A stretch of DNA of 64,000 nucleotides from Candidatus Nomurabacteria bacterium (GTDB taxonomy: Bacteria; Patescibacteriota; Patescibacteriia; Magasanikbacterales; UBA922): positions 36,387 through 100,386 of the forward strand of contig JACKFN010000002.1 of assembly GCA_020632445.1 (NCBI GenBank), given 5' to 3'. Of the stretch, positions 5,985-60,424 are shown piece after piece. The position numbers were made by a program, and so were the translations under genes. The notes under the pieces are model-generated. The model searched no databases, was not told the DNA's origin, and was given only the letters and a program-made list of their open reading frames with translations. Every line of letters starts with the position of its first letter. Positions within the stretch are counted from its first letter, which is position 1.

Positions 5985-6010
5985 AAAAAAGAGCCGTTTG
6001 GCTCTTTTTT
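5985..6010 (+). terminator. rho-independent terminator
   Basis: aaaaaagagcc-gttt-ggctctttttt. Confidence 0.6.
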
Positions 6011-6078
6011 GATTCTCTCTTGACCAGAATAGAAAAGAAAGTTAAAATGCGGATGGATTCAACCACAGGAGACCAGTC

Positions 6079-6894
6079 ATGGTCCAGCGTAACTTTGGGA
6101 ATGCTGCAGGTGAGCTTCTCGCTCACCACATCACCACCATCGCCATGCCAGGCAGGAAGGATGTGCTGGTCGATCAGATCATGCGACTCCTCCCGCGCAT
6201 CTTCAAACGTGTCCCGCAGGACGCGAGCTGGGGGTTCGACACCCACACGCGAGGAGATCCCGATCTAGGCTTTGTCTGGAAACGGGGCACGGCGCGAAGC
6301 GGTGACACCCGGGAAGACATCAAGCTCTACTTGCACTGGAACCCTGCTCTACCGGGGCTCTTCCGGGGGCGGAGCATCACAGGACGTGACCTCGAGCTTC
6401 TGATGCAGCTGTGCGAGGAACTGTTCTACCTCACGCTCACGCAAGCGATCAGGCTGGCCCAGGACATCGATTCTCTCATACCAGGCATCAAGCTCACCAC
6501 GAAGATCCGGTCGCCCGAAGGCACACAGGCCAACGGGGCAAACGACCACGTGCTTCGCATTCTGATCTACCAGCAGGTCCATCCAGACCTCGCTGGCCAG
6601 ATCGGCCAGGAACACGATGACCGCGACGGCCTCACGCTCGCCCTGCACGAGAGCAGCCCTGGACTCGAGTACCTTTCGCCGAGCGACGGCCAGTGGCGTC
6701 CAGCTTCATCTGATCCTGGTCAAGCGCTGGTATTTCCGGGCCTGAAGATGGGAGAGCTCACGGATGGGGACCTCCCCGCGCTCAGGCACCGAGTCATGGA
6801 CTCAACCGCATCCTTGAATCCAAGGATCAAGCGCGTGAGCATCGTCATGTTCATACATCCGTACAACGGCTACTGCAGACTACGAACCCACTAA
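6079..6894 (+). CDS. 2-oxoglutarate/Fe(II)-dependent oxygenase (IPNS-like superfamily), high-GC
   Basis: H-x-D in EHDDRDGLTLALHE (HxD followed by TLxL), distal His and RxS in LPALRHRVM...RVSIVMFIHP; GC ~62%, GC3 strongly biased. Confidence 0.6.
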   Translation: MVQRNFGNAAGELLAHHITTIAMPGRKDVLVDQIMRLLPRIFKRVPQDASWGFDTHTRGDPDLGFVWKRGTARSGDTREDIKLYLHWNPALPGLFRGRSITGRDLELLMQLCEELFYLTLTQAIRLAQDIDSLIPGIKLTTKIRSPEGTQANGANDHVLRILIYQQVHPDLAGQIGQEHDDRDGLTLALHESSPGLEYLSPSDGQWRPASSDPGQALVFPGLKMGELTDGDLPALRHRVMDSTASLNPRIKRVSIVMFIHPYNGYCRLRTH

Positions 6895-6898
6895 AAAC

Positions 6899-7672
6899 CT
6901 ACCCACCTTCCCCAAAAACCCTCAAGGCCTTTGACCAATCAGCTATTTCTTTTTCGTTGTGATAGAGAGTAAACTCATATACTAACTGGTGCAACTCATG
7001 CGCTATTTTTTTATCAAAATTTCCCATATCAAAAGCAGAAAAACCTTTTTCCAAAAAGAGTTCTAGTAAAAATAGCTGTGGTTTATTGATAGCTACCACG
7101 TGTTCACCAATTTTCTTTTTCATCTCGAATTCCTTTGGGCAAATAATTCCGCCTCCCTGAAAATAGAAACCAAAGGGTTTTTCTTTTTCAAAATCCTTTA
7201 AAAGCATTTCAGTCAGAGTACATCTATCCGTCACTGGCTCAAAACCAAATAAACACATGAGCTTGAGAAAAAAAACATCCATTGAAAACATCAGTGAGGG
7301 CCTATTCTGCGAGTTTTCAAGGTGTGTTAAAAAAAGATAGGTCAGGTCAAAGATACGTTCATCCACCTGCCAAGATTGCAGCAACCTATATAAAGTATTC
7401 ATGACAAAAGCAGCAATGGCAGTCTTAAGCAAATCACTGCGAATATCTGAAAAATATTCGACGCCATATACCTTGATCAAATACTGAAATTCCTTTCCGG
7501 GCGTGGTTTCTATCCGTACGACAGAAAACGGCTCAAGTTGAGCCGTATTTTTACTGACAATTTTTTTGACACCGCGTGCAAGCAAATCAAGCCTCCCCTG
7601 CTCTCGTGTATATACCGCAATAATTTGATCGCTCTCTCGATAATCGCGGCGATGCAATACAATGGCGTGCAT
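6899..7672 (-). CDS. recO: DNA repair protein RecO
   Basis: 257 aa; N-terminal OB-fold region MHAIVLHRRDYRESDQIIAVYTREQGRL... characteristic of RecO. Confidence 0.7.
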   Translation of the reverse strand: MHAIVLHRRDYRESDQIIAVYTREQGRLDLLARGVKKIVSKNTAQLEPFSVVRIETTPGKEFQYLIKVYGVEYFSDIRSDLLKTAIAAFVMNTLYRLLQSWQVDERIFDLTYLFLTHLENSQNRPSLMFSMDVFFLKLMCLFGFEPVTDRCTLTEMLLKDFEKEKPFGFYFQGGGIICPKEFEMKKKIGEHVVAINKPQLFLLELFLEKGFSAFDMGNFDKKIAHELHQLVYEFTLYHNEKEIADWSKALRVFGEGG

Positions 7673-9028: not shown

Positions 9029-10927
9029 CTAATTACTTTCCTTCACAAGCTCAGGCAACATCTTCAATTCTTCAGAAAAATCTTTCTCTCCGGTTCCAAG
9101 AGGATTATATCCACCAAGAATTTCTGTAAGATCATCAAAGCCATCACCGTCAGTATCAGCACTGCCTGGACTCGTCCCAAATATCATCTCATGAAACTCA
9201 TTAAGGCCATCTCCATCAACATCTGCTTCAAATTCTCCAAATCCAGCTTCACCATCAATACTCATAGAAAAATCCATACTGTCTACTACCATGACACTGG
9301 AAGGGAGGATCTTGTCTGCTTCCGGATACTCGTCCTTAGTTTCATAGTTGTACTCTGGCATTACTATAGTAAATCCTCCGGGAATAGCGCTATCACCAAA
9401 AGTAATACCGGAGTAATCACTTGTTGATTCGTCTTCAGTTTCTATGGTTGGCAAACCAACAGGACTCTTTAGCTGTACATACTTATCTCGAAATACAAGC
9501 TCATACGAAGCGCCATCATCCATACTTTTGTAGGCAAAAGCTTCCAAACGATCTTCTCCGAATATCATTGCGACATAAGGACTTAACTTTGGATCACAGA
9601 CTTCTTCAAATCCGTTGTGACTTAAACAGTTTATTCCACCATTTTGCACGACGACAAAATCCGCACTCTTCGGATAGTGACCATTGTCAACAAAATACAA
9701 TTCCAATCCAGTTTCAAGTTGCTTTACTGTCGATACCATACGACTTTCTCGTGCGCTTGCCATGGATGGCTCCATCATGACACCCATAACTTCCTGCACG
9801 ATTTGCTCAAAAGGCATTGCATCCTGAGGTTCCTCAACTTCAAATGCTTCATTAAATTTGTCTGCACCTACAAAAATTTTAACCTGAAAAGGAACGGGAG
9901 CTGCCAAAAAATCTCCCTCCCAGGTACTCCCAATTTCTACGCCGATCTCTCTAAGATATTTGGTTTGCTTATCAATTTTTAAACTTATCTCAAATACATC
10001 AGCATTTTCCTTTAGGTCTTTCAAATCACGAATGTGCATTTCATTTTCAAACGATGACCGAATCTCTGGATCTCCAGAAATTTCAGAAATCCTATTTAAA
10101 AACACCTCAAATTTTTTAGTATCTATGTCGACTGCAATATGGTAAACATTTTCGTCTTCCGACTCTTTGTAGGAAAATGTCATTGGTCGTATCTCACGGA
10201 AAGCTGCTATAACTTCTTCCGACATATCCTTTGAATCATCAAAAGCATCCTCTGTCATCTTCAAGCCACCACCGGCAAGTGCGCCCATCGATTCAATAAC
10301 AATCCACCTATTGAGATAGTTTCCTATAGTCTGAAGCACCATCTCCTGCGTGACTCCATCTGGCTTTCCAAATGATACATCTTGTAAACGAAAGTAATCT
10401 TTGTCTCCTATATTGCGATAGTCAGCCGTAAAAGCCGCAAGCTGCGAGTCGAGAGACACGGTTGTCTGCATCCTTTGCTCCGTGCCAGTGGCATTATTTC
10501 CATTTGCCGTCATAGTTATAACAGCATCAAGCTGGTCTGTCCCCCATTCTTCCTTAATGCTGGTGCCGTCTGAGGAACCGAGTGTAAGACTGAATCCTTC
10601 TCTGCTCTTTGTATCACTTTCTGTCTGCTGTGCTGCGTCAAGATCAGAGAGGTCGGCATGAAGCTCCAACCGCAGCTTCGTTTCGTAGGTTTCGATTTCT
10701 TCCATGGCAGAAATCATCTCAAGGACAACATCTTGTGGGTCCGGTGGAGTACTCGTTTTTTTTAAAGCATTTTGCACCATTCCACTCATAAAGGCATACG
10801 CTCCACCAGCGATAAGCAAAATCACGATCGCCAAACCAACGATGATGGGAGCTTGCGATGGAGTTTGCTGCATGGAAGATACGCTTGACTGCCGCGTATT
10901 TGGAATATTAGAAGGTTGCTGATCCAT
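9029..10927 (-). CDS. large membrane-anchored extracellular protein with C-terminal Ca-binding DxDGDG repeats
   Basis: 632 aa; N-terminal TM; C-terminal DVDGDGLNEF...DTDGDGFDD thrombospondin-type-3-like repeats. Confidence 0.45.
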   Translation of the reverse strand: MDQQPSNIPNTRQSSVSSMQQTPSQAPIIVGLAIVILLIAGGAYAFMSGMVQNALKKTSTPPDPQDVVLEMISAMEEIETYETKLRLELHADLSDLDAAQQTESDTKSREGFSLTLGSSDGTSIKEEWGTDQLDAVITMTANGNNATGTEQRMQTTVSLDSQLAAFTADYRNIGDKDYFRLQDVSFGKPDGVTQEMVLQTIGNYLNRWIVIESMGALAGGGLKMTEDAFDDSKDMSEEVIAAFREIRPMTFSYKESEDENVYHIAVDIDTKKFEVFLNRISEISGDPEIRSSFENEMHIRDLKDLKENADVFEISLKIDKQTKYLREIGVEIGSTWEGDFLAAPVPFQVKIFVGADKFNEAFEVEEPQDAMPFEQIVQEVMGVMMEPSMASARESRMVSTVKQLETGLELYFVDNGHYPKSADFVVVQNGGINCLSHNGFEEVCDPKLSPYVAMIFGEDRLEAFAYKSMDDGASYELVFRDKYVQLKSPVGLPTIETEDESTSDYSGITFGDSAIPGGFTIVMPEYNYETKDEYPEADKILPSSVMVVDSMDFSMSIDGEAGFGEFEADVDGDGLNEFHEMIFGTSPGSADTDGDGFDDLTEILGGYNPLGTGEKDFSEELKMLPELVKESN

Positions 10928-37891: not shown

Positions 37892-38041
37892 AATGATGCT
37901 GTTTTATACGACTATTGAATAAAAAATACCCATTTTGGGTACGCTTTTATGCTTATTCTCGCCAAAAATGGCGCAGGAATATGATAAGCGTATCCTTCTC
38001 CCTAGTCTCCTAGGAATACTTCGCTTGAGTAAGTTGGCATG

Positions 38042-49940: not shown

Positions 49941-50426
49941 CTATTTTGGTGGGTTGACTGAAAAAAGCCGACACTGCTCAGGCACCGCGCGTAGCGGACA
50001 GTGCAGCCTCTGCTGGTGGGTGGCAAGGCGATCACACACACCACAAGACGCACTCCACGGCACAATGTCCCATGTATCGACAGACGACTCTCTCCATCCT
50101 GCCTTTTGCGCAAGATGAGAGACTTTGTCGTTGTGTGTGAGTAGAAATGCAGAAATGTCGTTGGCAAGTACGAGAAGCTTACCAAAAATCTCACTCGCCA
50201 AGCCCCTGCCACGCGCACGAGGATGCACCCAGACAGAACCAAGTTCAAACCAACGATCATCCGGGGTTTCCCACAGCGCCGCAAAAGCAACAATGACCAA
50301 GCCCTCACTGACAAGAACGGCCTGTCCCTCTAGAAACTTCCTCTCCAAAAGGTCGGCGGAAAGCCGGCCACCAAGCAAATCAGACTCGCTATTCAGGTTG
50401 TTAGCCAAATCATCCCAGCGGTACAT
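49941..50426 (-). CDS. GNAT-family N-acetyltransferase (GC-elevated)
   Basis: WVHPRARGRGLASEI (motif A R/Q-x-x-G-x-G/A); start placed at MYRWDD; ~55% GC. Confidence 0.55.
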   Translation of the reverse strand: MYRWDDLANNLNSESDLLGGRLSADLLERKFLEGQAVLVSEGLVIVAFAALWETPDDRWFELGSVWVHPRARGRGLASEIFGKLLVLANDISAFLLTHNDKVSHLAQKAGWRESSVDTWDIVPWSASCGVCDRLATHQQRLHCPLRAVPEQCRLFSVNPPK

Positions 50427-51953: not shown

Positions 51954-52658
51954 TGAGCCCGCGATGGAATGTCGCGGGCGCTCAGGTAGGGTAGGTTGTT
52001 GGTGGGATGTACTAGGCGAGGAGGGACTGGACGGCGTCGGCGATGCGGTTCTGCTGCTCGGGCGTGCCGGCCACGAGCATCCCGAGCTTGCAGTCGCCGA
52101 TGGTGCCCCAGTTGAACACCACCACGCCAGTGCCGGTCTTCGAGTCGAACACGTGGCCGTTCAGATCCAGGCGACTGAAGTCGATGTGGTTGACCTGGAA
52201 GTTCCTGGCCATCCACTGCGGAATCTGCAGACGCTCGGCCACGATCGTCGGGAACGTCGCACCGTTGTAACGCGGGTTACACTCGATCATCAGGAAGTCA
52301 CCATCAGCGGTCACCACCACGTCGAAGGCGAAGTACCCCCGCATCCCGCGACGCGCCAGCTCGCTGGCCACCGGATCGGTGATCCCCCAGGGCTGGTACT
52401 GCGTCGGGTAGCGGTTGCCATCGTGGGCGTTGCCCTTGAGGATCTGCACACTCACCGCGCCGCGCTTGACGCGACCCTGGCCATCCACGTGGTACTGGAC
52501 GTTCAGGAAGGCCTTGGCGCCCGCGACCTCACGCTGGATCTGGAACGGAACATCGTCCGCCAGCTGATCGAGGTTGGTCTCCAGCTCATGACGATCGTTG
52601 CACCGGATCACGCCCAGACCCGACACCGAGACCGCGACCTTGAGGTACACGGGGTACG
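51954..52658. repeat. 705-bp direct repeat copy A (1 mismatch vs 53411..54115)
   Basis: Sequence from tgagcccgcgatggaatgtcgcgggc... to ...gaggtacacggggtacg is identical between copies except g/t at 52179 vs 53636; covers the 3' ~214 codons of each ATP-grasp gene plus 58 nt of 3' flank including hairpin GCCCGCGA-tggaatg-TCGCGGGC. Confidence 0.9.
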
Positions 52659-53106
52659 GGAACGACCAGGTGCTCCCGAGACCGGCCTTGTTGTCGTAAA
52701 GCCAGGTCTGCGGGGTGGGCACGCGCAAGGTTCGACACAACGACACGAGCTGGTTCTTGTCGTTCATCTTGGCCGTGATGTCGTACCGCCTCTGGTTCGG
52801 GCGCACCGCGTGCGCCTGGTGGCCGAAGAAGAACACGTCGAGCTCGTGGTTCAAGAACTCCCCCTGGGTCGCGACGCCGAAGCTCGCGTCCCAGACCACC
52901 TCGCCGGTGACCGACAGACCTACCTCGACGTAGTGCGCCTGGATCCAATCCCAGTGTTCGGCGAGCCTCGAATCCAGTTGGATCGTGTCCCACTGCTGCG
53001 TCGCGCACAGCGTACGCCCGCTGTAGTTGGGCAGCCCGGCGATGCGGTGGTGCTCACCGTAGCCCAGGCAGTCGAGCATGTCGTGGTTGAAAATTCGCTT
53101 GTTCAC
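52012..53106 (-). CDS. ATP-grasp ligase paralog A (high-GC, GTG start)
   Basis: ATP-grasp core: VYLKVAVSVSGLGV, FQIQREV, FAFDVVVTADGDFLMIECNPRYNG; GC3 ~90%; GGGGAG SD before GTG; N-terminal half ~70% identical to paralog B. Confidence 0.75.
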   Translation of the reverse strand: MNKRIFNHDMLDCLGYGEHHRIAGLPNYSGRTLCATQQWDTIQLDSRLAEHWDWIQAHYVEVGLSVTGEVVWDASFGVATQGEFLNHELDVFFFGHQAHAVRPNQRRYDITAKMNDKNQLVSLCRTLRVPTPQTWLYDNKAGLGSTWSFPYPVYLKVAVSVSGLGVIRCNDRHELETNLDQLADDVPFQIQREVAGAKAFLNVQYHVDGQGRVKRGAVSVQILKGNAHDGNRYPTQYQPWGITDPVASELARRGMRGYFAFDVVVTADGDFLMIECNPRYNGATFPTIVAERLQIPQWMARNFQVNHIDFSRLDLNGHVFDSKTGTGVVVFNWGTIGDCKLGMLVAGTPEQQNRIADAVQSLLA

Positions 53107-53410: not shown

Positions 53411-54115
53411 TGAGCCCGCGATGGAATGTCGCGGGCGCTCAGGTAGGGTAGGTTGTTGGTGGGATGTACTAGGCGAGGAGGGACTGGACGGCGTCGGCGA
53501 TGCGGTTCTGCTGCTCGGGCGTGCCGGCCACGAGCATCCCGAGCTTGCAGTCGCCGATGGTGCCCCAGTTGAACACCACCACGCCAGTGCCGGTCTTCGA
53601 GTCGAACACGTGGTCGTTCAGATCCAGGCGACTGAAGTCGATGTGGTTGACCTGGAAGTTCCTGGCCATCCACTGCGGAATCTGCAGACGCTCGGCCACG
53701 ATCGTCGGGAACGTCGCACCGTTGTAACGCGGGTTACACTCGATCATCAGGAAGTCACCATCAGCGGTCACCACCACGTCGAAGGCGAAGTACCCCCGCA
53801 TCCCGCGACGCGCCAGCTCGCTGGCCACCGGATCGGTGATCCCCCAGGGCTGGTACTGCGTCGGGTAGCGGTTGCCATCGTGGGCGTTGCCCTTGAGGAT
53901 CTGCACACTCACCGCGCCGCGCTTGACGCGACCCTGGCCATCCACGTGGTACTGGACGTTCAGGAAGGCCTTGGCGCCCGCGACCTCACGCTGGATCTGG
54001 AACGGAACATCGTCCGCCAGCTGATCGAGGTTGGTCTCCAGCTCATGACGATCGTTGCACCGGATCACGCCCAGACCCGACACCGAGACCGCGACCTTGA
54101 GGTACACGGGGTACG
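53411..54115. repeat. 705-bp direct repeat copy B
   Basis: see copy A. Confidence 0.9.
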
Positions 54116-54596
54116 TGAAGGCCACGTCACGCAGCGCCGACTTGTTGTCGAACAACTGCGTCTCGGGCGTGGGCACGCCCAGCTCGCGGCACAGGGCGAT
54201 CAGCTTGTTCTTGTTGTTCATGGCCTCGGTGATGTCGAACCACTGCTGGTTCGGGCGCACCGCGTGCGCCTGGTGGCCGAAAAAGAACACATCGAGCTCG
54301 TGGCCCGCGAACTCGGACGCAGCCGCGACGCCGAAGCTCGCGTCCCAGACCACCTCGCCGGTGACCGACAGACCGACCTCGGCGTAGTGCGCCTGGATCC
54401 AGTCCCAGTGCGGCGACAGCGCACCGTCCAGCTGGATCGTGTCCCACTGCTGCGTCGCGCACAATGGACGGCCCGTGTAGTGCTTGAGCACCGCCCACAT
54501 AGCCGCCTGATCGGCACGAACTCCGGCGTTGGCAACGCCCAACGGGTTCATACCGAAGGAATCCAAGACGTCACCGTTAAAAAGCTTTCGCTTCAT
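53469..54596 (-). CDS. ATP-grasp ligase paralog B (high-GC)
   Basis: Start at MKRKLFNGDVLDSFG aligning with paralog A N-terminus (alternative in-frame start 15 codons upstream); C-terminal 214 aa identical to A. Confidence 0.75.
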   Translation of the reverse strand: MKRKLFNGDVLDSFGMNPLGVANAGVRADQAAMWAVLKHYTGRPLCATQQWDTIQLDGALSPHWDWIQAHYAEVGLSVTGEVVWDASFGVAAASEFAGHELDVFFFGHQAHAVRPNQQWFDITEAMNNKNKLIALCRELGVPTPETQLFDNKSALRDVAFTYPVYLKVAVSVSGLGVIRCNDRHELETNLDQLADDVPFQIQREVAGAKAFLNVQYHVDGQGRVKRGAVSVQILKGNAHDGNRYPTQYQPWGITDPVASELARRGMRGYFAFDVVVTADGDFLMIECNPRYNGATFPTIVAERLQIPQWMARNFQVNHIDFSRLDLNDHVFDSKTGTGVVVFNWGTIGDCKLGMLVAGTPEQQNRIADAVQSLLA

Positions 54597-54827: not shown

Positions 54828-54956
54828 TATGTTCTTTACACACTTTTCCACAACAAAAACAATTCTCTCCTGTAACCTACTATCACTTTGCAAACGAGAA
54901 CTTATCATCTTTCCAACAAACCGTTCTCAACTGTTCTTTGTTATCCACACCTCCAC

Positions 54957-54999
54957 TTGACCTCTTTTTCAAAATGTACTACAGTACTAGTACACTAGT
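54957..54999 (+). promoter_or_regulatory. promoter TTGACC-17nt-TACAGT overlapped by tandem ACTAGT trp-operator-like repeats
   Basis: GTACTAGTACACTAGTA: two ACTAGT half-sites 8 bp apart (54986..54991, 54994..54999), closely resembling E. coli trp operator GTACTAGTTAACTAGTAC. Confidence 0.55.
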
Positions 55000-55003
55000 A
55001 TAT

Positions 55004-55276
55004 ATGTACTCTTCCAAAGAACTTGTTTCACTGCTATGCAAAATAACAGAGCCAAAAGAAATGGAGCTGTTTTTGACAGACCTACTCACGAGCAGTGAGC
55101 AAAAAGAACTCTCACAAAGACTTCAAATTGTAAAGCTCCTCCATAAAAATGTACCTCAGCGAACAATCGCAGAAAAGCTTGGCATTGGAGTGGCAACCAT
55201 AACACGAGGCTCCAAAGAAATGCAGAAAAAAAATAGTGGGTTTCAAAAAATACTCGACAAGTACTATGATCGCTAA
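55004..55276 (+). CDS. Trp repressor (TrpR)-family DNA-binding protein
   Basis: LLTSSEQKELSQRLQIVKLLHKNVPQRTIAEKLGIGVATITRGSKEMQ aligns with E. coli TrpR [50 protein letters not shown]; start chosen downstream of promoter. Confidence 0.65.
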   Translation: MYSSKELVSLLCKITEPKEMELFLTDLLTSSEQKELSQRLQIVKLLHKNVPQRTIAEKLGIGVATITRGSKEMQKKNSGFQKILDKYYDR

Positions 55277-55344
55277 CACTTCACAATTCAATCTTCATTG
55301 GTGGCCTTACACACTTTTTTGGTAAAGCCGGTTTTTTGTTTGCT

Positions 55345-55385
55345 CTTGTGACTCTGGCTTTTCCAGAGTCTTTTTGTTTTTTCAA
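55345..55385 (+). terminator. terminator after trpR-like gene
   Basis: gactctgg-cttttc-cagagtc followed by tttttgtttttt. Confidence 0.55.
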
Positions 55386-55432
55386 AGGGCTGGCAAAAAA
55401 AATTTGCCGGCAAGAGAAAACGCAAGGAGACA

Positions 55433-56376
55433 CCATGGAACTTCAACGTTTTGTGCTCGAGATGCTCCCCCAACTGCTCGAGTGCGGCAACGCCGCAGCC
55501 ATTGCTGTCTGGGCGCGCGAGCATCTACAGCAGTTGCCTGCTTCAAGGGATGAGCTTACGGTCCTCGATCTATCCATGATCGAAACGAGTCTGGCTCACA
55601 GTGGCGTGCCCATACCAGCATCGCTCACCAGTCTACTGATGAACCTCACAAACGGTGGCCCTTTCCTCACCTACCACCAACTGGTGATGGTAAACCCTGC
55701 GCAGGCCACTCGATGCTTCACTCGTGGACCTTCCGGTGAGGCCGAACGTGCTTTTTACCTTGCCCACAAGGAAATTGAGCATGGCCTCGCCATGGCATGC
55801 GCCAAAATCATGAAGGCCTTGGGACACACTGACCCCCAACAGGCCTGCAATGCTCTGCATGGCATTGAGCATGACACAAGCGTTCTGATCGAAAACACTC
55901 GACACCTCGCTGGGATGAATCCAGAACACTTCGCTGCCTTTCGGGGATATCTCGCCAGCCATCCAGTCCATGGATTCCCTGGTCCAAGCGGTCTGTTTTC
56001 TCCAGGAGTCTACCTCCTCGAGCTGCTCCTGCGTGGCCCACAGAGCACGTGGCCCCAGTTCTTTGCAAATAGAGGCACATGCTTTGACAACGAATCGCTG
56101 CGAAGTATCACGGGCGCCATGGAGGATGGGCACACGCTCACGGCACACATGATATCACTCGACTGGCCACCACGCATGCATGAGGTCGTCCGGTTCCTTG
56201 AGACACTGCTCGACAGCTTCCGTGGTCACCACTACAAAGCCGTACGCAAACAGATTCCACAAGCGCTCACCCCAGGTGGAACAGGAACCGCTGGAGAATC
56301 TGCAGGACAATTCCTGCGTGATCGAATGCGTGAAAGCAAAGCCTCCCACCGAAATCAACCCACCAAACGGGAGTAG
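55433..56376 (+). CDS. tryptophan 2,3-dioxygenase-like protein (high-GC)
   Basis: AFRGYLASHP...LLELLL and GTGTAGESAGQFLRDRM resemble TDO motifs DFRGYL..FRLLE and GTGGSSG..YLR; AAGGAGA SD; ~60% GC. Confidence 0.45.
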
Positions 56377-56407
56377 GGCTTACCTACTCCCATTCAAACT
56401 CCTTACT

Positions 56408-57448
56408 ATGCAGACACAATTTCAAAATCACACCATATCACAAATTATCAAAGGCGGATGGCAACTTGCTGGGGGTCATGGCAACATAAATGCACAGCAG
56501 GCTATCAGTGATATGTTTTCATTTGTAGATGCAGGCATAAACACCTTTGACTGCGCCGATATTTACACCGGTGTTGAAGAAATGATTGGCCATTTTCGAA
56601 TGCAGTACCAAAAAAAACATGGACTAAGCGAACTTGAAAAAATCCATATTCACACAAAATTTGTGCCTGACTACGAAAGTCTCCATGAGATTTCACTGTC
56701 ATCTGTCGAAAATATTATCGATAGATCATTACGACGCCTCCAAACGGAAAGACTTGATCTGGTACAATTTCATTTTTGGGATTTTTCGATAAACACCTAT
56801 ACACAAGCAGCACTCCATCTCAAAACACTTCAGCAAAAAGGAAAAATAAAACACATTGGTCTGACCAATTTTGACGTTGTTCACATGAAAGAGCTTCTCG
56901 ATCTTGGAGTTGAAATCGCTTCAAACCAAATTCAATATTCGCTCATTGATAACCGATCAGAAAAAGGAATGCTTGAATTTTGCAAGCAAAACGATATTGC
57001 AATTTTTTGTTATGGTACTGTTTCCGGTGGACTGCTAAGTAACAGATATCTTCACGCACCTGAGCCACACGCCCCATTTGAAAACAGATCACTCACAAAA
57101 TACAAACTCATCCAAGAAGAACGTGGAAATTGGACAGTCTTCCAAACCCTTTTGCAAGTATTACATGAAATTGGTCAAAAGCACCACGCGAGTATTACCA
57201 ATATTGCAACACGATACATTCTTGATCATTCCAGCGCAAAAGCGGTTATTATAGGAGCTCGAGATGCAACTCATCTGCAAGATAATATCAAACTTTTTGA
57301 CTTTTCACTTGATACAAGTGATAGGGAAAAAATTCAAAAGGTACTTGAAAGTTTCACTCCATTGCCTGGCGATATATATGAACTTGAAAGAGATAAACAC
57401 GGCAAACACGGAAGCATTATGAAATACAATCTTAACAAAAAAATATGA
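56408..57448 (+). CDS. aldo/keto reductase
   Basis: AKR fold motifs (FDCADIYTG, GLTNF, IQYSLID); start at MQTQFQ. Confidence 0.7.
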   Translation: MQTQFQNHTISQIIKGGWQLAGGHGNINAQQAISDMFSFVDAGINTFDCADIYTGVEEMIGHFRMQYQKKHGLSELEKIHIHTKFVPDYESLHEISLSSVENIIDRSLRRLQTERLDLVQFHFWDFSINTYTQAALHLKTLQQKGKIKHIGLTNFDVVHMKELLDLGVEIASNQIQYSLIDNRSEKGMLEFCKQNDIAIFCYGTVSGGLLSNRYLHAPEPHAPFENRSLTKYKLIQEERGNWTVFQTLLQVLHEIGQKHHASITNIATRYILDHSSAKAVIIGARDATHLQDNIKLFDFSLDTSDREKIQKVLESFTPLPGDIYELERDKHGKHGSIMKYNLNKKI

Positions 57449-57789
57449 AAAAAAGCGAAACCTTTACCCTCTACGACCTGCATGTCGAGGTCGTTGGAGA
57501 CCCAAAAACATTTGTATGCAAACACATACTGGGAAGCGCATTTGTGATACAGGGAGAAAATCTCGTTTTTGATAAGCAAAAAACTTTCAGTATGTATGCT
57601 TTGGCTGCAATGCTTCCACTCCTGCCTGCTAAGCAAAGGCCTACACATGAAAATGACTGGATGACCAGTGATGAAAACATCGCATGTCCAGATCCACATT
57701 GCGGCGCAAGGTTTAAAATATCACGCACCGGAGTGCGTGAATTTCATCGGTCAGATTGTACGGTTGTGCCGATTGAGAAAACAGCGTAG
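57445..57789 (+). CDS. small Cys-containing hypothetical protein (TIGR04076-like)
   Basis: 114 aa with CKH...GSAF...ACPDPHCG pattern. Confidence 0.3.
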   Translation: MKKSETFTLYDLHVEVVGDPKTFVCKHILGSAFVIQGENLVFDKQKTFSMYALAAMLPLLPAKQRPTHENDWMTSDENIACPDPHCGARFKISRTGVREFHRSDCTVVPIEKTA

Positions 57790-57802
57790 CAACATCACAA
57801 CA

Positions 57803-59976: not shown

Positions 59977-60006
59977 AAAGACACGCCTCGAGCGTGTCTT
60001 TGCTTT
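59977..60006 (+). terminator. terminator after tgt
   Basis: aaagacacgc-ctcga-gcgtgtctttgcttt. Confidence 0.65.
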
Positions 60007-60039
60007 ACAAAATGAAAAAATCGGGGTAAAGTGTTTGCA

Positions 60040-60358
60040 CACTCACACGCTGCTTGGCAGCACTGGAGGCATCTTGAGCCGAGAAATCATCTTTCTCCTC
60101 ATCGGCGGACCGTTCATGGGATGGACACTCCGTCCTTTCGAGATCATCGAAGACAGCGATGACGACGAAGATCCGGACCCGTCCGCGCCGATCCCGGAGA
60201 TCACTCACCATAACCTCTTCCCCCAGCCGCTGACTCCCCCCGCTGCCCAGCGCAGGCCCGACCGGCGCCTGGCGAACAGTGGAGCGCACCGCCGGGCGAT
60301 CTACAGGCCCAACACCTTCCGCACCCCGACCCGCGCCGCCAGCCGCAGGCACGGCTGA
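60040..60358 (+). pseudogene. high-GC coding fragment without credible start (remnant of acquired gene)
   Basis: ~320 bp at ~65% GC with strong GC3 bias in + frame (…EDSDDDEDPDPSAPIPEITHHNLFPQPLTPPAAQRRPDRR…); sits between tgt terminator and queA terminator. Confidence 0.4.
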
Positions 60359-60396
60359 ACCGGGCGCCCCACCGCGCCCACTCCCCTTCCATACAT

Positions 60397-60424
60397 CAAA
60401 AAACGGCACTTGGCCGATTTTTTT
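60397..60424. terminator. bidirectional terminator (serves queA)
   Basis: aaaaaacggc-acttg-gccgattttttt. Confidence 0.55.

Follow-up and report, generated by a model that had tools for sequence, protein, structure and literature searches.

When, and to what end, would a bacterium of the Patescibacteria (candidate phyla radiation, CPR), a group believed, like small predatory bacteria, to be without amino-acid biosynthesis, express a tryptophan (Trp) repressor together with a haem enzyme of the Trp-dioxygenase superfamily? The question is raised by a 64,000-nucleotide stretch of a Candidatus Nomurabacteria contig (JACKFN010000002.1; the whole analysed stretch is called the window here), in which a trpR gene is followed by a GC-rich gene for a protein related to indoleamine 2,3-dioxygenase (IDO), an aldo/keto reductase (AKR) gene and a gene for a small TIGR04076-family protein. 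An earlier note on this DNA described a TrpR-family repressor with an Escherichia coli-like operator over its own promoter, then a terminator and a gene resembling tryptophan 2,3-dioxygenase (TDO), and took them for a pairing of Trp sensing with Trp oxidation. The promoter, operator, trpR, hairpin, GC-rich open reading frame (ORF) and AKR gene all lie at or close to where it had placed them, but we read the hairpin and the direction of control differently.

Judging from the sequence, we consider it fairly probable that positions 54957-57789 form one Trp-starvation-induced unit, controlled by TrpR and an attenuator, that would sustain the charging of Trp-tRNA. The narrower claim, that the unit is predicted to respond to a shortage of Trp rather than to Trp, is well supported by the agreement of the sensors described below. 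What the sequences show is the parts with their order and conservation, the enzyme's fold and main residues, and the linkage among the three genes; the corepressor role of Trp, the read-through itself and the chemistry are inferred.

Repressor, operator and leader

The trpR product matches the Pfam Trp_repressor family (E = 3e-24, 85.3 bits against a cutoff of 27) and passes the NCBIfam TrpR equivalog model (73.4 bits; cutoff 67.25), whereas the YerC/YecD model scores 39.6 bits, under its own cutoff of 42.2. A protein identical to it carries the NCBI name 'trp operon repressor'. BLASTP pairs T29, R39, R53, T65, T67, R68 and G69 with T44, R54, R69, T81, T83, R84 and G85 of E. coli TrpR, residues which in that protein bind the corepressor and contact DNA. 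With both models passed and the DNA-contact residues aligned, the assignment as a TrpR-type repressor stands. At 54974 there is an ATG in frame with trpR, but it precedes the likely start of transcription and is not the annotated start codon.

The predicted operator reaches from the end of the -10 box into the transcription start region, a position where a repressor would block RNA polymerase. Its 18 nucleotides agree with the symmetric E. coli trp operator consensus at 15 of 18 positions. The exact arrangement ACTAGT-N2-ACTAGT occurs once in the 64-kb window and in 0 of 100 shuffles, and a search with two mismatches allowed adds just one self-overlap of the operator; by exact and mismatch searches the window thus holds no second TrpR operator. 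The earlier note had named the lack of additional operator sites as something that would speak against its reading. Such sites are indeed lacking in the window, yet orthologous loci conserve the operator, so that their absence does not decide the matter.

The sole other CTAG-N4-CTAG in the window, at 38002-38013, lies just downstream of a TTGACA-17-TATACT promoter. It was rejected as a TrpR site, being an inverted repeat (CCTAGGAGACTAGG) without the ACTAGT core, and is probably a structure of a 5'-untranslated region instead. The adjacent promoter appears to serve a putative ribosomal-protein operon, whose gene identity is judged from ORF sizes only.

The hairpin downstream of trpR does not stand alone. 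A short leader ORF, whose ATG (55266) precedes the trpR stop codon by 8 nucleotides, encodes a Trp-rich peptide, and at least three Trp codons including a tandem pair are found in just 7 of the 865 small ATG-initiated ORFs of the window. The leader can adopt alternative pairings between four segments (Table 1). The 2:3 pairing ties up the terminator's two arms together with its loop, and the folding energy of 2:3 exceeds that of the terminator. Folded without obstruction, the leader forms 1:2 together with the terminator. When a ribosome is set on the tandem Trp codons in constrained folds, 2:3 displaces the terminator, and a ribosome at the last Trp codon or at the stop codon masks segment 2 so that the terminator forms. 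PMC7755916 summarises the E. coli trp attenuator as depending on ribosome position in just this way. On sequence grounds, then, the hairpin and U-run after trpR is predicted to be the 3:4 arm of a classical trp-type, Trp-codon leader attenuator, and not, as the earlier note had it, a terminator that separates trpR from the enzyme gene.

An Rfam search of the window leader returned no family and no Trp_leader match at E <= 1, and only a weak Phe_leader match on the opposite strand. The Rfam Trp_leader model is presumably built from enterobacterial sequences, so that the null result concerns family membership and not mechanism.

Between the terminator and the start codon of the IDO-like gene (region 55385-55434) lies a further 9-bp hairpin, GCTGGCAAA / TTTGCCGGC, at about 55393-55415, which could be a candidate translational control element. 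In the full-length fold the U-run of the terminator also pairs with the purine-rich Shine-Dalgarno region of the IDO-like gene.

Put together, the unit would run in the order promoter and operator, trpR, Trp-codon leader with attenuator, IDO-like gene, AKR gene and TIGR04076 gene. TrpR with L-Trp bound would occupy the operator, whose tandem CTAGs cover the -10 box and +1, and shut off trpR along with the genes downstream. Ribosomes that finish trpR would re-initiate on the 19-codon leader. With charged tRNA-Trp in ample supply, the ribosome would reach the leader stop codon and mask segment 2, leaving the terminator to form just upstream of the enzyme genes. With tRNA-Trp scarce, it would stall at the tandem Trp codons in segment 1, segment 2 would pair with the terminator, and transcription would proceed. 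The net result would be that the three enzymes are produced at low Trp and low charged tRNA-Trp.

Table 1 Features of the trpR unit, with positions in the window
Feature	Positions	Strand	Details
Putative operon promoter, sigma-70 type	TTGACC 54957-54962; 17-nt spacer; TACAGT 54980-54985	+	Read from the letters; in promoter scan list
Predicted TrpR operator, GTACTAGTACACTAGTAT	54984-55001		Two CTAG centres 8 bp apart, from end of -10 box into transcription start region
trpR, Trp repressor, 90 aa	55004-55276	+	Pfam PF01371; NCBIfam TIGR01321
Leader peptide ORF, MIANTSQFNLHWWPYTLFW and stop, 19 codons	55266-55325	+	Tandem Trp codons 55299-55304; single Trp codon 55320-55322
Predicted hairpin 1:2, GGUGGCCUUACACA : UGGUAAAGCCGGU	55300-55332	+	-8.4 kcal/mol; tandem Trp codons inside segment 1
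Predicted antiterminator 2:3	55318-55331 paired with 55354-55367 (span 55318-55367)	+	-14.9 kcal/mol; z -2.6
Predicted intrinsic terminator 3:4, GACUCUGG-CUUUU-CCAGAGUC then UUUUUGUUUUUU	55350-55382	+	Terminator scan; -12.6 kcal/mol; z -3.8
IDO/PrnB-fold putative haem protein, 313 aa	55435-56376	+	Shine-Dalgarno AAGGAG 55424-55429
AKR, 346 aa	56408-57448	+	Pfam PF00248, E = 1e-70
TIGR04076-family small protein, 114 aa	57445-57789	+	NCBIfam TIGR04076, 55 bits (cutoff 33); start overlaps AKR stop

Related loci and their tryptophan sensors

A word search with the enzyme gave 8 distant relatives and a profile search 316, and scans of genomes and metagenomes gave further loci. A cassette of IDO-like, reductase and TIGR04076 genes is found in 28 distinct loci. 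Its carriers are Patescibacteria (Saccharibacteria, Daviesbacteria, Peribacteria and Nomurabacteria), Bdellovibrionales, Micavibrio and small proteobacterial metagenome-assembled genomes; it occurs almost only in episymbiont or predator lifestyles. In most complete loci the IDO-like gene comes with AKR and TIGR04076 genes, in varying order: AKR orthologues of 44-57% identity adjoin it in 16 loci (15 distinct) and TIGR04076 orthologues of 43-57% identity are present in 24 (21 distinct). In a subfamily of 276-residue enzymes, a luciferase-like (LLM) oxidoreductase of the F420/FMN type takes the place of the AKR. Natural fusions join the IDO-like protein to an AKR (P0237, 690 aa) and to a luciferase-like protein (P0131, 581 aa).

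The TIGR04076 protein has invariant AKQR, DW and PDP motifs, and we found no relative of it with a solved structure in the PDB. Its Cys residues vary, and a role as an obligatory Fe-S, Zn or redox partner was rejected for that reason. The idea of an anti-phage defence system was rejected, as PADLOC gave nothing beyond a trivial helix-turn-helix match.

In 22-23 of the 28 distinct loci, those in which the upstream region is readable, a sensor of Trp shortage is identifiable. It is TrpR with a leader in 11 loci, only a leader in 7, and in 4-5 a putative T-box whose specifier is read as UGG. The opposite regulatory logic was seen in none of the 28. Among the relatives from the word search, a Trp_repressor gene lies directly upstream of every one examined, and the pairing that the earlier note had pointed out, between TrpR and a haem oxygenase from the superfamily of Trp dioxygenases, is evolutionarily conserved.

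The 11 distinct trpR-linked loci are the window, L001, L004, L006, L011, L016, L017, L019, L021, L023 and L028. In all 11, a short ORF with one to three Trp codons begins within 8 nucleotides of the trpR stop codon (for example MNRRLIILTSYGEQGAWWNSRYIWESI and MLNLSQNNTKWWWLVSIGTRAEILY). The 1:2/2:3/3:4 layout of the window recurs in L001, L004 and L006, the segments of the last reading CAUCCUCC, GGGGAGGAU, ACCUCCCC and GGGAGGUUUUUUU. In several relatives the terminator after the leader stops about 20 nucleotides before the Shine-Dalgarno sequence or ATG of the next gene, which leaves no space for a separate promoter ahead of the enzyme gene.

The E. coli-like tandem-CTAG operator on the promoter of trpR itself, reported in the earlier note, likewise recurs ahead of trpR: 7 related distinct loci have it, and a further 3 have variants of the core motif. 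It reads GTACTAGTATGCTAGTAT in L001, L004, L017 and L028, and ATACTAGCGTACTAGTAT in L006, where it lies within a TTGACA-17-TATAAT promoter. L016 has three CTAGs with 8-bp spacing, L019, L021 and L023 have a single (G)TACTAGTA(C) across the -10/+1 region, and L011 has the variant GTACT...AGTAC. In L001, L006, L019, L021 and L023, promoters of the form TTGACA-17-TATAAT/TAGTAT overlap the operator in an equivalent way. L023 also contains a second Trp_repressor-family gene (1885-2187, 100 aa, Pfam E = 1e-25), 1.3 kb upstream of its trpR-cassette operon.

Seven cassettes without trpR (L005, L008, L012, L015, L018, L029 and L030) have a promoter of their own, a Trp-rich leader and a terminator; the leaders of L005 (MLNWWWTLNFF...) and L015 (...YAWWWSFT) both contain three Trp codons in a row. 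Over the 18 leaders, 40 of 410 codons specify Trp (9.8%; P ~1e-15 against the small-ORF background), some of these leaders being related to one another. The seven leaders of the 276-residue subfamily share 76% identity and are too alike for covariation to be assessed.

Other loci have putative T-boxes, which precede the enzyme gene in L007, L020, L022 and probably L009, and follow it in L010 and L027. They score 28-38 bits against Rfam RF00230 (E = 5.6e-5 to 0.02), under the gathering score of 93. In their alignment the AAGGUGGCACCGCG box and a (U/C)UGGG specifier bulge are conserved, and stem I covaries (UUGCGA:UCGCGA, CUAGG:CCUAG, AUCAG:CUGAU and CUCGG:CCGAG). Bacterial tRNA-Trp carries a G73 discriminator. 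We read the specifier as UGG, with a UGGC bulge that would fit this G73. Because UUG or CUG precedes UGG, Leu was considered as the specified amino acid as well; it was judged less likely, since the UGGC bulge pairs with G73 and the loci carry trpS and Trp leaders.

The company that the cassette keeps also points to Trp metabolism. The gene for tryptophanyl-tRNA synthetase (TrpRS), trpS, confirmed by TIGR00233, lies directly downstream of the cassette and in the same orientation in L006, L008, L021, L029 and L030, and is adjacent to it in L009, L010, L026 and L027. Nearby genes include trpF in L021, chorismate mutase in L009 and DAHP synthase in L029. In L022 (3583-8195) the operon runs T-box, IDO-like gene, trpC (indole-3-glycerol-phosphate synthase), kynureninase and trpD, a mixture of kynurenine-pathway and Trp-biosynthesis genes that suggests anthranilate production feeding Trp synthesis. 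In mammalian cells, interferon co-induces IDO1 and TrpRS, an intriguing parallel.

The IDO-like enzyme and the possible purpose of the cassette

Searched directly, the enzyme sequence matches nothing in Pfam or the PDB. The Pfam IDO family (PF01231), which 38 of 107 relatives match weakly (best E = 2e-9), gives no match to the window protein, and the TDO thresholds of Pfam PF03301 and NCBIfam TIGR03036 are not reached (16 bits for TIGR03036, against a cutoff of 390). The family profile covers IDO1 almost end to end (E = 4e-16), TDO partly (3e-7) and PrnB weakly (1e-3), and its top match in the PDB is the S167H mutant of IDO1. AlphaFold run on the 107-sequence alignment gave a model with a predicted local distance difference test score (pLDDT) of 95 and a predicted template modelling score of 0.92; an earlier AlphaFold2 model from nine sequences had a pLDDT of 45 and was unusable.

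The key residues can be located by alignment with IDO1. H266, invariant in the 107 sequences, falls on the proximal H346, which answers the earlier note's call for a check of the haem-ligand His. R170 aligns with R231, the Arg that binds the substrate carboxylate, S185 with S263 (GPSG/GGSA loop), and T285, in a GT(G/A)G loop, with T379. The proximal His, the carboxylate Arg and the Ser and Thr loops align likewise across the two-domain branch of IDO1/IDO2, PrnB and Shewanella SO4414, to which identity is 16-20%. H111 occupies the position of IDO1 S167, where TDO has its distal His. Unlike IDO1, the window enzyme thus has a distal His of the TDO type; it is also shorter, it has a reductase and a TIGR04076 protein as constant partners, and its predicted control is by Trp shortage. 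With TDO/KynA it shares the superfamily, the distal His and a proximal His in an H...V...G.GTGG-like motif. According to the model, the enzyme is a two-domain protein of the IDO/PrnB/SO4414 type in the haem-dependent aromatic oxygenase superfamily, so that the description 'TDO-like' holds for the superfamily but not for the architecture. The pocket, as modelled, seems suited to Trp or to an alpha-amino acid that closely resembles it.

Our best guess at the chemistry is that the haem enzyme would oxygenate a Trp-like alpha-amino acid, either L-Trp or a congener that the cell cannot use, for example a Trp analogue or a D- or N-modified form, and that the AKR or LLM enzyme would reduce the carbonyl product by hydride transfer. 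In this way the cassette would help to keep tRNA-Trp charged rather than burn Trp, either by salvaging ('recapturing') a Trp congener or by clearing competitors of TrpRS.

A rival account has the enzyme burn Trp. In this account TrpR regulates only itself, the terminator ends the transcript, and the acquired dioxygenase serves independent catabolism of Trp by the kynurenine pathway, as a chance neighbour or as a Trp-induced gene. An IDO fold that keeps the Trp-binding and haem-ligand residues of IDO1 and TDO fits such a role, and so do the GC content of the gene (0.56, against 0.38-0.44 for the trpR, AKR and TIGR04076 genes) and the kynureninase gene that adjoins it in one relative, L022. However, the L022 kynureninase stands among trpC and trpD, an anabolic context. 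The downstream formamidase that the earlier note had suggested looking for is absent: unlike in kynA-kynB-kynU operons, neither formamidase nor kynureninase is found beside the enzyme gene in the window, nor in 27 of the 28 distinct loci. What follows instead is the AKR gene and then the TIGR04076 gene, and in the relatives the partners are AKR or LLM reductases and TIGR04076 proteins, conserved and not incidental. The account is further at odds with the lack of promoter space between terminator and enzyme gene in relatives, with the presence of trpS in the same operon in several loci, and with Trp-codon leaders, UGG T-boxes and TrpR, each of which predicts expression at low Trp. That predicted logic runs counter to the catabolic pairing of Trp sensing and Trp oxidation put forward earlier. 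Because all independent sensors agree and trpS is often co-transcribed, we rank a role in Trp-tRNA charging above plain catabolism, which we consider unlikely.

The same oxygenase could alternatively belong to a tailoring module of the PrnB/MarE type that turns Trp into a bioactive indole or oxindole, a signal or toxin directed at host or prey, with the Trp sensors tuning the use of the precursor. An oxygenase and a reductase are a common tailoring pair, here even fused in some relatives, and the carriers are episymbionts and predators. Yet a Trp-derived product made when Trp-tRNA is scarce would waste the limiting nutrient, the profile is nearer IDO1 than PrnB by the E values given above, and co-transcription with trpS points to translation supply. 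No halogenase, nonribosomal peptide synthetase, methyltransferase or exporter is conserved near the cassette. This, too, is an improbable explanation.

It is most improbable that the short ORF and hairpins are coincidental and that an ordinary trpR terminator precedes a cassette expressed constitutively from an unrecognised promoter: small ORFs are common in the window, and its leader has neither a clear Shine-Dalgarno sequence nor an Rfam match, but Trp codons, mutually exclusive hairpins with a U-run and the close spacing to the trpR stop codon recur in leaders from diverse lineages, the 2:3 pairing is statistically unusual, and T-boxes stand in for the leader at other loci.

A unit induced by Trp starvation therefore remains the reading we favour, and several observations weigh against it. 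The promoter call is a consensus match alone; TTGACC-17-TACAGT is in the scan output, but the match frequency of that scan is at chance level. A weak promoter-like sequence, TTCAAA-17-TATGAT at 55242-55270, could transcribe the leader and cassette independently of TrpR. Within TrpR, the E. coli corepressor contact S88 is replaced by Glu. The window leader lacks an obvious Shine-Dalgarno sequence, so that its translation would depend on coupling to trpR. In some relatives, thermodynamic folding still prefers the terminator when segment 1 is masked; folding alone is not sufficient there, and the model leans on co-transcriptional kinetics, as in E. coli. The upstream region is truncated or unclear in 5 of the 28 distinct loci. 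Finally, essentially all Trp-contact positions of IDO1 are kept in the active site. L-Trp itself may thus be the substrate, in which case induction by Trp shortage would be paradoxical. If L-Trp is the true substrate, another rationale is needed, for example production of a starvation signal.

Known systems, neighbouring DNA and significance

Each regulatory part belongs to a known kind, namely TrpR and its operator, the trpL-type attenuator and, in relatives, the T-box. As in the E. coli TrpR/trpO and trpL-trpEDCBA system, the aporepressor is of the same family and CTAG centres 8 bp apart lie over the -10/+1 region. The leader resembles trpL in being a short ORF with tandem Trp codons in segment 1, followed by alternative 1:2, 2:3 and 3:4 hairpins and a U-run terminator, and in both systems the two control layers are, or are predicted to be, ON at low Trp. 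In E. coli, however, trpR is unlinked, whereas the trpR of the window opens the operon and is predicted to be translationally coupled to the leader. The payload also differs: where E. coli has Trp biosynthesis, the window has the IDO-like haem enzyme with its reductase and TIGR04076 partners.

In operon layout, trpR-IGR-trpBA of Chlamydia trachomatis comes closest. There too, trpR comes first, is autoregulated from PtrpR and is followed by an intergenic regulatory region (IGR), and the genes restore Trp supply in a host-dependent Trp auxotroph (PMC7755916). The annotated chlamydial TrpL is long, has no tandem Trp codons and is considered doubtful, and attenuation acts in trans through YtgR (PMC7755916). 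The window leader, in contrast, is short, Trp-rich and structurally classical, and its payload is the IDO-like cassette rather than trpBA. A concept of 'tryptophan recapture' exists for chlamydial trp operons with kynU (PMC3937554).

The cassettes of relatives resemble the T-box(Trp) regulons of Firmicute trpS and trp genes, as they lie behind UGG T-boxes or adjoin trpS, and in L022 the IDO-like gene sits between the T-box and trpC-kynU-trpD; the window differs in using TrpR and a leader. A literature search returned no paper that ties IDO-like genes to these taxa, and we know of no IDO-like gene described as a member of T-box(Trp) or recapture regulons. To our knowledge, what is new is the predicted translational coupling of trpR to the leader, the IDO-like/reductase/TIGR04076 payload and its consistent predicted control by Trp shortage in episymbionts and predators.

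The unit appears to be an arrival in its genome. A relative, L032 (2285-4607), is syntenic with the window, with genes for TGT, a 170-residue ORF, a C39-like peptidase, an ATP-grasp protein, M20 and UvrD, yet has no trpR, IDO-like, AKR or TIGR04076 gene where the C39 peptidase gene meets that for the ATP-grasp protein. This indicates that the trpR operon (window positions 54900-57800) is an insertion in the genome of the window. Within the inserted cassette there may have been another replacement, that of the IDO-like gene. The trpR cassette of L001 has a serine recombinase with Resolvase and Recombinase domains (5997-7520) directly upstream and a tRNA gene (10294-10365) just downstream, flanks that are consistent with a mobile cassette.

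Divergent from trpR, on the minus strand, stand ATP-grasp genes with a promoter (TTGACA, 54827-54822; 17-nt spacer; TAATGT, 54804-54799) and a leader ORF (MKHIYSSNFFFFFGASRGW and stop, 54791 to 54732) that contains five Phe codons in a row, with a terminator after it (AAGCCACCTCGGGTGGCTTTTTT, 54705-54687). The Phe_leader match that Rfam gives here is weak (22 bits, E = 0.49). The pair of ATP-grasp and M20 genes in relatives also lies behind Phe-rich leaders, MDYAKNNWFFFFSRH and stop in L031 and ...IFFIWF... in L032, and a Phe-starvation attenuator probably governs this ligase/peptidase pair. The ATP-grasp genes of the window are tandem paralogues (52012-53106 and 53469-54596) that share 82-83% identity and hardly differ in their 3' halves. 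Their GC content of 0.64, in a region of about 0.40, gives rise to long spurious antisense ORFs; the L032 homologue has 0.57, against 0.33 for its M20 neighbour. Other short GC-rich patches occur at 50000-50400 (0.53) and 60000-60400 (0.62), over a background of about 0.40-0.44.

A further set of genes recalls this pair. In L010 (1383-4466) and L027 (5197-8336), a second T-box, after the IDO-like gene, has the same UGG-bearing stem I and heads genes for a GCS2-like carboxylate-amine ligase, a deacylase of AstE/AspA type and a protein of about 325 residues without an assigned family, with trpS convergent. The ligase and deacylase set looks like one controlled by Trp shortage, comparable to the ATP-grasp/M20 pair under its Phe leader.

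Whatever its chemistry, the locus has the textbook E. coli-type two-tier Trp switch of repressor and attenuator, to all appearance intact in a tiny, symbiont-type bacterium and wired to an uncharacterised haem-enzyme cassette. It gives a cheap-to-test handle on nutrient sensing in unculturable episymbionts, and it raises the sharp question of how an IDO-family enzyme helps a cell that is short of Trp. Answering it may bring to light a new route of salvage or proof-reading, and would widen the known roles of the IDO/TDO superfamily. One tentative possibility is that the trio is a previously unrecognised Trp-supply module of host-dependent Trp auxotrophs (Patescibacteria, Bdellovibrionales and Micavibrio), which would either convert an unusable congener toward Trp synthesis, as L022 suggests, or destroy analogues that poison TrpRS at times of Trp scarcity, with the ATP-grasp and M20 pair as its Phe counterpart. 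If true, the Trp trio and the Phe-leader pair would together suggest that CPR bacteria have a family of modules for scavenging amino acids under attenuator control.

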